64,000 bases of DNA from Escherichia coli. GTDB taxonomy: Bacteria > Pseudomonadota > Gammaproteobacteria > Enterobacterales > Enterobacteriaceae. The notes beneath the pieces are model-generated. The model saw nothing but the letters and a program-made list of their open reading frames with translations, had not been told where the DNA came from and did no database searches. Of this stretch, positions 47,649 to 48,386 are shown piece by piece. A program made the translations under genes and the position numbers. The stretch lies in the NCBI RefSeq assembly GCF_003790525.1, contig NZ_CP033635.1; one strand, written 5' to 3'. Within the stretch, counting starts at the first letter, position 1; each line of letters begins with the position of its first letter.

Positions 47649-48386
47649 ATGTCACAGTCTACATCCGTGCTTCGTCGTAATGGATTTACTTTTAAACAGT
47701 TTTTTGTTGCTCACGATCGTTGTGCGATGAAAGTGGGAACGGATGGCATTTTGCTGGGCGCATGGGCACCGGTGGCTGGGGTAAAACGTTGCCTTGATAT
47801 CGGCGCGGGTAGCGGGTTGCTGGCATTAATGCTGGCGCAGCGAACCGATGACAGCGTAATGATTGATGCAGTTGAACTGGAAAGTGAAGCTGCCGCGCAG
47901 GCGCAGGAAAATATCAACCAGTCCCCGTGGGCAGAGCGGATTAACGTCCATACGGCGGATATTCAGCAGTGGATCACACAGCAGACAGTACGCTTCGATT
48001 TAATCATCAGTAACCCACCTTACTATCAGCAGGGAGTAGAGTGCTCGACACCTCAACGGGAACAGGCTCGCTATACCACTACGCTTGATCACCCATCGTT
48101 GCTGACCTGTGCGGCGGAGTGCATTACCGAAGAGGGATTTTTCTGCGTGGTGCTGCCAGAGCAGATTGGTAATGGTTTTACTGAACTGGCATTAAGTATG
48201 GGCTGGCATTTACGTTTGCGGACGGATGTGGCGGAAAACGAAGCGCGACTGCCGCATCGGGTGCTGCTGGCATTCTCCCCGCAGGCGGGAGAATGCTTTA
48301 GCGATCGCTTAGTCATTCGTGGGCCAGACCAGAACTATTCCGAAGCGTATACGGCGCTGACCCAGGCTTTTTATCTGTTTATGTAA
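47649..48386 (+). CDS. trmN6: tRNA m6A37 methyltransferase TrmN6 (YfiC)
   Basis: 245-aa ORF from [19 protein letters not shown]... with NPPY motif. Confidence 0.85.

Follow-up and report, generated by a model that had tools for sequence, protein, structure and literature searches.

The convergent 16-bp overlap of nadB and trmN in Escherichia coli: anatomy, conservation, and probable origin

Introduction

Convergent genes account for 7% of well-characterised gene overlaps, and such overlaps are made by loss of a stop codon or by 3' extension (Palleja et al. 2008, PMC2478687). In E. coli, 75 convergent overlapping pairs have been counted (Huvet & Stumpf 2014, PMC4161906). As described by Rogozin et al. 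2002 and in these two studies (PMC4161906; PMC2478687), the class consists of genuine genes on opposite strands that share their 3' ends and are kept in this arrangement in related genomes. A common form is a 4-nt overlap of the TTAA type, in which the wobble positions of the two genes face each other.

Overlap between converging neighbours has also been described at the level of their transcripts. Using ExcludonFinder, Sanmartin et al. (NAR 2025, PMC12288877) listed 165 convergent "excludons" in E. coli MG1655, and the pair nadB-yfiC is among them. Their criterion was overlap of RNA-seq coverage in at least 50% of 58 transcriptomes. As a class, excludon pairs had higher synteny and less single-cell co-expression, and capture of double-stranded RNA with p19 failed to validate the convergent pairs as a class (PMC12288877). 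In our literature search, this was the only paper found that names both nadB and yfiC. RNA that continues past a gene is itself subject to control, as Rho suppresses antisense and read-through transcripts (Peters et al. 2012; Dar & Sorek 2018, PMC6061677), and the 3' ends of Rho substrates are trimmed back to a stem (PMC6061677).

We analysed the junction of nadB and trmN (yfiC) in a 64,000-nt stretch of E. coli DNA from contig NZ_CP033635.1, which we call the window. An earlier note on the window, made from its letters and its open reading frames (ORFs), had called attention to an overlap of these two genes and had raised possible consequences for transcription termination and for antisense interference. 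The overlap was already known in the sense that it stands in the reference annotation and that the pair is on a published list of overlapping transcripts.

Results and discussion

Anatomy of the overlap

The tails of trmN (plus strand) and nadB (minus strand) share 16 nt at 48371-48386 (TTATCTGTTTATGTAA), and the sequence and the ORF list bear out to the nucleotide the position given in the earlier note. On the plus strand, the shared stretch carries the codons (F)YLFM and a stop; on the minus strand, it carries (H)YINR and a stop. The trmN coding sequence (CDS) occupies 47649-48386 (+), from its annotated ATG start at 47649 to a TAA stop at 48384-48386, and its 3' end reads ...TTT TAT CTG TTT ATG TAA. 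The nadB CDS occupies 48371-49993 (-) and ends ...CAT TAC ATA AAC AGA TAA, its stop being the complement of 48371-48373. The last sense codons of nadB are ATA-AAC-AGA (48374-48382), with AGA adjoining the stop. Third codon positions of the TrmN and NadB frames lie opposite each other, as do the wobble positions in TTAA-type overlaps.

The gene names given in the earlier note were right, as both products pass the cut-offs of curated NCBI equivalog models. TrmN, also called YfiC, TrmN6, or TrmM after its alternative gene names, is the tRNA1(Val) m6A37 methyltransferase of 245 aa, based on the ORF list, the RefSeq annotation of strain SMS-3-5, and the NCBIfam equivalog NF047853. It scores 421.6 bits against this model (cut-off, 350), with residues 2-245 aligned to profile positions 1-244 of 244. 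NadB is L-aspartate oxidase of 540 aa, based on the ORF list, the RefSeq annotation, and NCBIfam NF006567 (1048 bits; cut-off, 629), and it matches the 540-aa PDB entries 1chu and 1knp over its full length. The broad nadB model TIGR00551 stops at NadB residue 520. No in-frame stop comes before either of these two, both ORFs match their curated families, and each stop lies within the partner ORF.

The 16-bp overlap also stands in the RefSeq annotation of E. coli SMS-3-5 and of K-12 MG1655, where nadB is at 2710420..2712042 and yfiC is at 2712027..2712764. Positions 47400-50100 of the window are 100% identical to SMS-3-5, and all but one of 5426 complete E. coli genomes (5425) contain this segment.

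Conservation of the overlap

Within the species, the 101-bp junction was found at 90% identity or more in 5408 of the 5426 complete genomes. To look beyond E. coli, we took one genome per species, which gave 80 Enterobacteriaceae loci with TrmN identities of 71-97%, and located the stops by script. Both genes were present in 81 sequences, made up of 78 scanned loci, the window, and the SMS-3-5 and K-12 records. The overlap was exactly 16 bp in 78 of these 81 sequences, 8 bp in two, and 12 bp in one. Among the 16-bp loci, the spelling of the stops varies (TAA, TGA, or TAG in trmN; TAA or TAG in nadB), and their positions are constant. Neither true stop lies upstream of the position assumed in the earlier note, which had proposed a check of this kind. 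We thus confirmed that the overlap is real and conserved, and neither a chance ORF end nor a slip of annotation.

The three exceptional loci carry insertions or deletions in the NadB tail. The overlaps of 8 or 12 bp arise because these changes shift the frame to other antisense stops in the AT-rich end of trmN. In one of the loci, from Escherichia sp. ESNIH1 (locus L034, about 3725-3755), 14 bp of the overlap segment are duplicated in tandem, with TTCTCTTTATGTAG present twice. The duplication leaves most of the NadB tail (NYIKR) outside trmN, in a shifted frame, and brings the overlap down to 8 bp. This locus is a natural, partial uncoupling of nadB and trmN.

The pair is an ordinary member of the class of convergent overlapping CDSs, showing all three of the features by which the class is described: the genes are genuine and on opposite strands, they share their 3' ends, and the arrangement is kept in related genomes. 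Nothing categorical sets it apart. Its overlap is 16 bp, compared with 4 bp for each of the other two overlapping convergent pairs of the window, and its length is unusually stable (78 of 81).

Constraint on the overlap

We asked which of the two genes holds the overlap in place. The C-terminal FYLFM of TrmN is invariant in 78 species save for one L-to-I change, and all variable DNA columns within the 16 bp are synonymous positions of TrmN or positions of stop spelling. In contrast, the last four residues of NadB are all polymorphic (H52/Y26, I69/M9, N62/K16, and R59/K18/M1), and these polymorphisms track the silent-site changes of TrmN exactly. TrmN is the constrained partner, and the NadB tail is a passenger that varies passively.

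Read on the opposite strand, the junction between the Phe and Tyr codons of TrmN is the nadB stop (TT[Y TA]Y reads TAR). This stop is TAA where TrmN has TT[T TA]T and TAG where it has TT[C TA]T, and it survives any synonymous change in TrmN. Locked by FYLFM in this way, the stop fixes the overlap at 16 bp. The same opposite-strand codons dictate the ATA and AGA at the end of nadB, two codons that are rare in the long ORFs of the window (ATA, 6.8% of Ile codons; AGA, 2.7% of Arg codons).

If NadB or an RNA element also acted on the overlap, the silent sites of TrmN within it might be expected to vary less. Minor-allele frequencies at these sites were 0.31, 0.20, and 0.12, and the mean silent variability of comparable TrmN codons elsewhere in the gene (n = 23) was 0.25. 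We therefore rejected extra constraint from NadB or RNA: synonymous variability is the same inside the overlap as in the rest of trmN, so neither the NadB tail nor an RNA element adds a detectable constraint. Conservation of the overlap is fully explained by the coding constraint on TrmN, and no regulatory selection is needed to account for it.

Outgroups and the origin of the overlap

The best 120 TrmN homologues listed were all at least 70% identical, and we drew outgroups from a search of representative genomes (TrmN about 50% identical) and from their contigs. In Yersinia bercovieri, trmN and nadB are convergent with a spacer of 70 bp; the spacer is 109 bp in a Biostraticola-like genome and 119 bp in another Enterobacterales relative. 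Folding predicts hairpins in these outgroup spacers. In two Hafnia loci, a branched-chain amino-acid transporter gene (Branch_AA_trans, brnQ-like) lies between trmN and nadB. Three lineages have no nadB between trmN and rpoE, namely, Intestinirhabdus alba, Rosenbergiella epipactidis, and the lineage of locus L090; I. alba belongs to the Enterobacteriaceae. A 132-aa antisense ORF lies 3' of trmN in I. alba, and we considered it as a possible nadB remnant and rejected it, as it shows no similarity.

In all four outgroups with nadB nearby, NadB ends ...P-T-I-L-x-P and then stops. This end (...PTILxP*) aligns with ...G-P-S-(I/V)-L-S-P of the Enterobacteriaceae, whose NadB runs 6-7 residues further, into trmN. 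The extension is GNHYINR in E. coli (48374-48394, -) and 6-7 aa in other Enterobacteriaceae, and it is absent from outgroup NadB. Judged from these alignments, the overlap is the derived state. Parsimony, applied to a small outgroup sample of four lineages, suggests that the spacer and the original nadB stop were lost by deletion in the ancestor of the Enterobacteriaceae. The three loci with overlaps of 8 or 12 bp agree with this course of events. Such a birth, in which a stop is moved or lost and one gene gains a short 3' extension, would match the route described for convergent overlapping pairs in general.

Transcription termination

We scanned 47400-50400 for consensus intrinsic terminators, with shuffled sequence as the expectation. 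Four terminator-like sites were found compared with 3.4 expected, which is chance level, and a re-implemented scan gave no conservation of the position of such sites across 79 species. One weak site would serve the nadB transcript (48234-48256, -); it lies about 115-126 nt beyond the end of nadB and consists of a 5-bp stem and CTTCGTTTTC, and the same 10-nt position bin was occupied in only 11 of 79 species, which in the loci detailed were Escherichia. Another would serve the trmN transcript (48608-48630, +), with a 5-bp stem and TTCGTTGTGC about 220-233 nt past the trmN stop; its position bin was occupied in only 8 of 79 species. The 300 nt past each stop folded unremarkably (z = -0.5 and -0.7) and gave no hairpin at the junction, and a comparison of 45000-51500 with Rfam at E <= 1 matched no family.

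The trmN ORF contains a perfect 10-bp inverted repeat at 48270-48296 (GCATTCTCCC-N7-GGGAGAATGC), 75-101 nt past the nadB stop. It spans trmN codons for AFSP...GEC, and TTTAGCG comes next on the plus strand. We rejected this hairpin as a conserved 3'-end structure, as covariation over 81 species gave it no support: 79.9% of cells were paired compared with 79.8% after shuffling, and there was one double-sided change. The repeat is probably a by-product of the encoded peptide. A trimmed 3' end of the nadB transcript in E. coli could nevertheless be capped there.

The neighbouring convergent pair yfiE/srmB offers a comparison within the window. Its 32-bp spacer (46151-46182) holds a perfect 9-bp GC-rich hairpin (AATGCCGGG-CTTAA-CCCGGCATT); an A-tract flanks one side of it, and the srmB strand has ATTATTTTTAT after the stem. 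The hairpin looks like a compact terminator for srmB at least. Both junctions share the need to end two converging transcripts in minimal space, but nadB/trmN has neither the spacer nor the hairpin with A and T tracts. A bidirectional intrinsic terminator, meaning a GC-rich hairpin with an A-tract and a U-tract, was absent between or spanning the nadB and trmN stops, which leave no spacer for one.

We also considered Rho. The trmN transcript has a C-rich, G-poor stretch at 48447-48524 (+), within antisense nadB and 60 nt beyond the trmN stop (28 C, 14 G); its C/G ratio of 1.93 over 78 nt is at the 98.7th percentile of the plus strand of the window. The nadB transcript has a similar stretch at 48113-48250 (-), which lies within antisense trmN and begins about 120 nt beyond the nadB stop, with C/G ratios of 1.86-2.0 (95th-97th percentile of the minus strand). 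Both are candidate Rho loading regions, but the antisense strand of coding DNA is C-rich in general, and composition therefore argues for Rho only weakly. The untranslated, C-rich, G-poor antisense RNA past each stop resembles the antisense and read-through RNA that Rho suppresses (Peters et al. 2012; PMC6061677), a match in base composition only. No transcript end of nadB or yfiC was found in the published 3'-end data consulted, which came from SMRT-Cappable-seq, TERMITe, and Adams et al. 2021, the last examined under both gene names and over the K-12 interval 2711800-2712299. Most plausibly, Rho would be the chief terminator of both mRNAs, acting inside the partner gene and followed by 3' trimming.

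The earlier note had held that there is no room for independent terminators. This stands insofar as there is no intergenic space and no intrinsic terminator that stands out, but it is too strong, as Rho loading sites can sit inside the partner ORF.

Transcript overlap

If both proteins are made, a transcript overlap of at least 16 nt is logically required. The suggestion that each transcript reads into the other gene therefore holds by virtue of the shared CDS ends, and overlap of RNA-seq coverage has been published for the pair (PMC12288877). Given that there is neither a spacer nor a conserved intrinsic terminator, each mRNA must extend into the partner gene. The two mRNAs thus have complementary 3' ends of at least 16 nt, and probably of 100 nt or more.

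Like the excludons of Table 1 in PMC12288877, nadB and yfiC are convergent neighbours with overlapping transcripts. What defines an excludon is reciprocal repression together with RNase III processing, which for this pair would be hypothetical. The two genes are not known to be functionally related, and their transcript overlap is forced by the CDSs and involves no long regulated 3' untranslated region. The three convergent pairs of the window with overlapping CDSs (tadA/mltF, trmN/nadB, and kgtP/yfiM) are all in the PMC12288877 table. Listing is near-automatic for such pairs, because overlapping CDSs produce overlapping coverage whenever both genes are expressed. For a CDS-overlapping pair, being listed as an excludon is no evidence of regulation. 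The antisense interference between nadB and trmN that was raised in the earlier note is hypothetical, and it is not needed for anything seen here.

Interpretation of the overlap

We consider it likely that nadB and trmN, whose functions are unrelated, overlap tail to tail in a passive and derived way. This reading builds on the anatomy, the conservation, and the asymmetric constraint of the overlap as observed, and on its derived state as read from the outgroups. In the proposed course of events, the ancestor of the Enterobacteriaceae would have lost a trmN-nadB spacer of 70-120 bp along with the original nadB stop, and the nadB frame would then have extended 6-7 codons to the first antisense stop inside trmN. 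That stop, hard-wired in the Phe-Tyr codons of TrmN, could not be lost while the FYLFM C terminus is kept. Each mRNA would enter its partner as untranslated antisense RNA and would be ended mainly by Rho and 3' trimming, with the C-rich, G-poor stretches 60-200 nt past each stop serving Rho. We take both nadB and trmN to be lowly transcribed, in which case collisions of polymerases and duplexes between the mRNAs should be rare. We infer that mutual interference is weak and incidental, with no selected regulatory link.

A different reading makes the pair a functional excludon, in which each gene represses the other by way of the complementary 3' ends, either because polymerases collide or because RNase III cuts the mRNA duplex, and NAD biosynthesis is thereby coupled to tRNA modification. 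We think this unlikely. The 16-bp arrangement is kept in 78 of 81 sequences, which speaks for it, but the invariant C terminus of TrmN explains this conservation, and synonymous sites carry no extra constraint. Relatives manage where a spacer or an inserted gene parts the two genes, or where the locus lacks nadB, and L-aspartate oxidase is not known to be functionally linked to m6A37 of tRNA1(Val). The pair is in the published excludome, having passed in at least 50% of 58 transcriptomes, and the higher synteny of the class, together with single-cell data suggesting that such pairs are seldom co-expressed, leaves room for a real effect (PMC12288877); against this stand the failed validation of convergent pairs as a class by double-stranded RNA capture in the same study and the near-automatic listing of pairs with overlapping CDSs. 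In a wider version of this idea, selection uses the overlap in one of two ways: as a true excludon, with NadR-controlled nadB set against trmN, or by tuning the level of NadB at translation termination through the rare ATA and AGA codons. We hold it to be very unlikely that selection uses the overlap in either way. Hayes, Bose & Sauer 2002 (as cited in PMC3985003) link an AGA-before-stop context to SsrA tagging in their title, and tagging of NadB through its AGA-stop context is speculative.

The transcript overlap might instead be short and defined, set by intrinsic terminators embedded in the partner CDS: the 48270-48296 hairpin together with the 48256-48234 site for nadB, and the 48608-48630 site for trmN. 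Our scan did find both weak sites, the Escherichia loci detailed have them in an unchanged position, and a perfect 10-bp stem stands 75-101 nt past the nadB stop. But the number of sites is what shuffled sequence gives, the two sites have short stems (5 bp) and interrupted U-tracts, the 10-bp hairpin shows neither a U-tract on the nadB strand nor covariation, and few species have a site in the same position bin (11 and 8 of 79). These points make embedded terminators a quite improbable explanation. An artefact of annotation, in which a sequencing error or a frameshift has misplaced one stop and the overlap is not real, is almost certainly not the answer. Many long convergent overlaps in databases are indeed errors of 3' extension (PMC2478687), but this overlap is short (16 bp), both proteins match curated full-length models, and the PDB constructs of NadB have 540 aa. 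The same stops are found in 5408 E. coli genomes and across species, and an artefact is excluded by their fixed positions with varying spelling. We rejected this reading as effectively refuted by the conserved stops and the curated model matches. The passive, derived overlap is the reading we prefer.

The modest value of the overlap is evolutionary. It cleanly illustrates the birth of a convergent overlap, by loss of a spacer and stop followed by a short read-through extension, and it shows how the length of an overlap can be frozen family-wide when two conserved codons of one gene dictate the stop of the other. It has little weight for regulation, and it warns that listing as an excludon is nearly automatic for pairs with overlapping CDSs.

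Other overlaps and reading frames in the window

Three of the 12 convergent junctions in the window overlap. Besides trmN/nadB, these are the 4-bp CDS overlaps of tadA/mltF (TTAA, 63056-63059) and kgtP/yfiM (TTAG, 36139-36142). A 4-bp overlap of genes in the same direction is found at the start of rpoE (50401-50976), which is overlapped by rseD (50249-50404), encoding the 51-aa rpoE leader peptide. A small ORF is similarly placed before rpoE in the Yersinia locus and in outgroup locus L088, with no family match on record. Finally, an ORF of 311 aa at 46795-47730 (+) runs antisense to srmB and into the srmB-trmN intergenic region; it is absent from the RefSeq annotation and is probably spurious.
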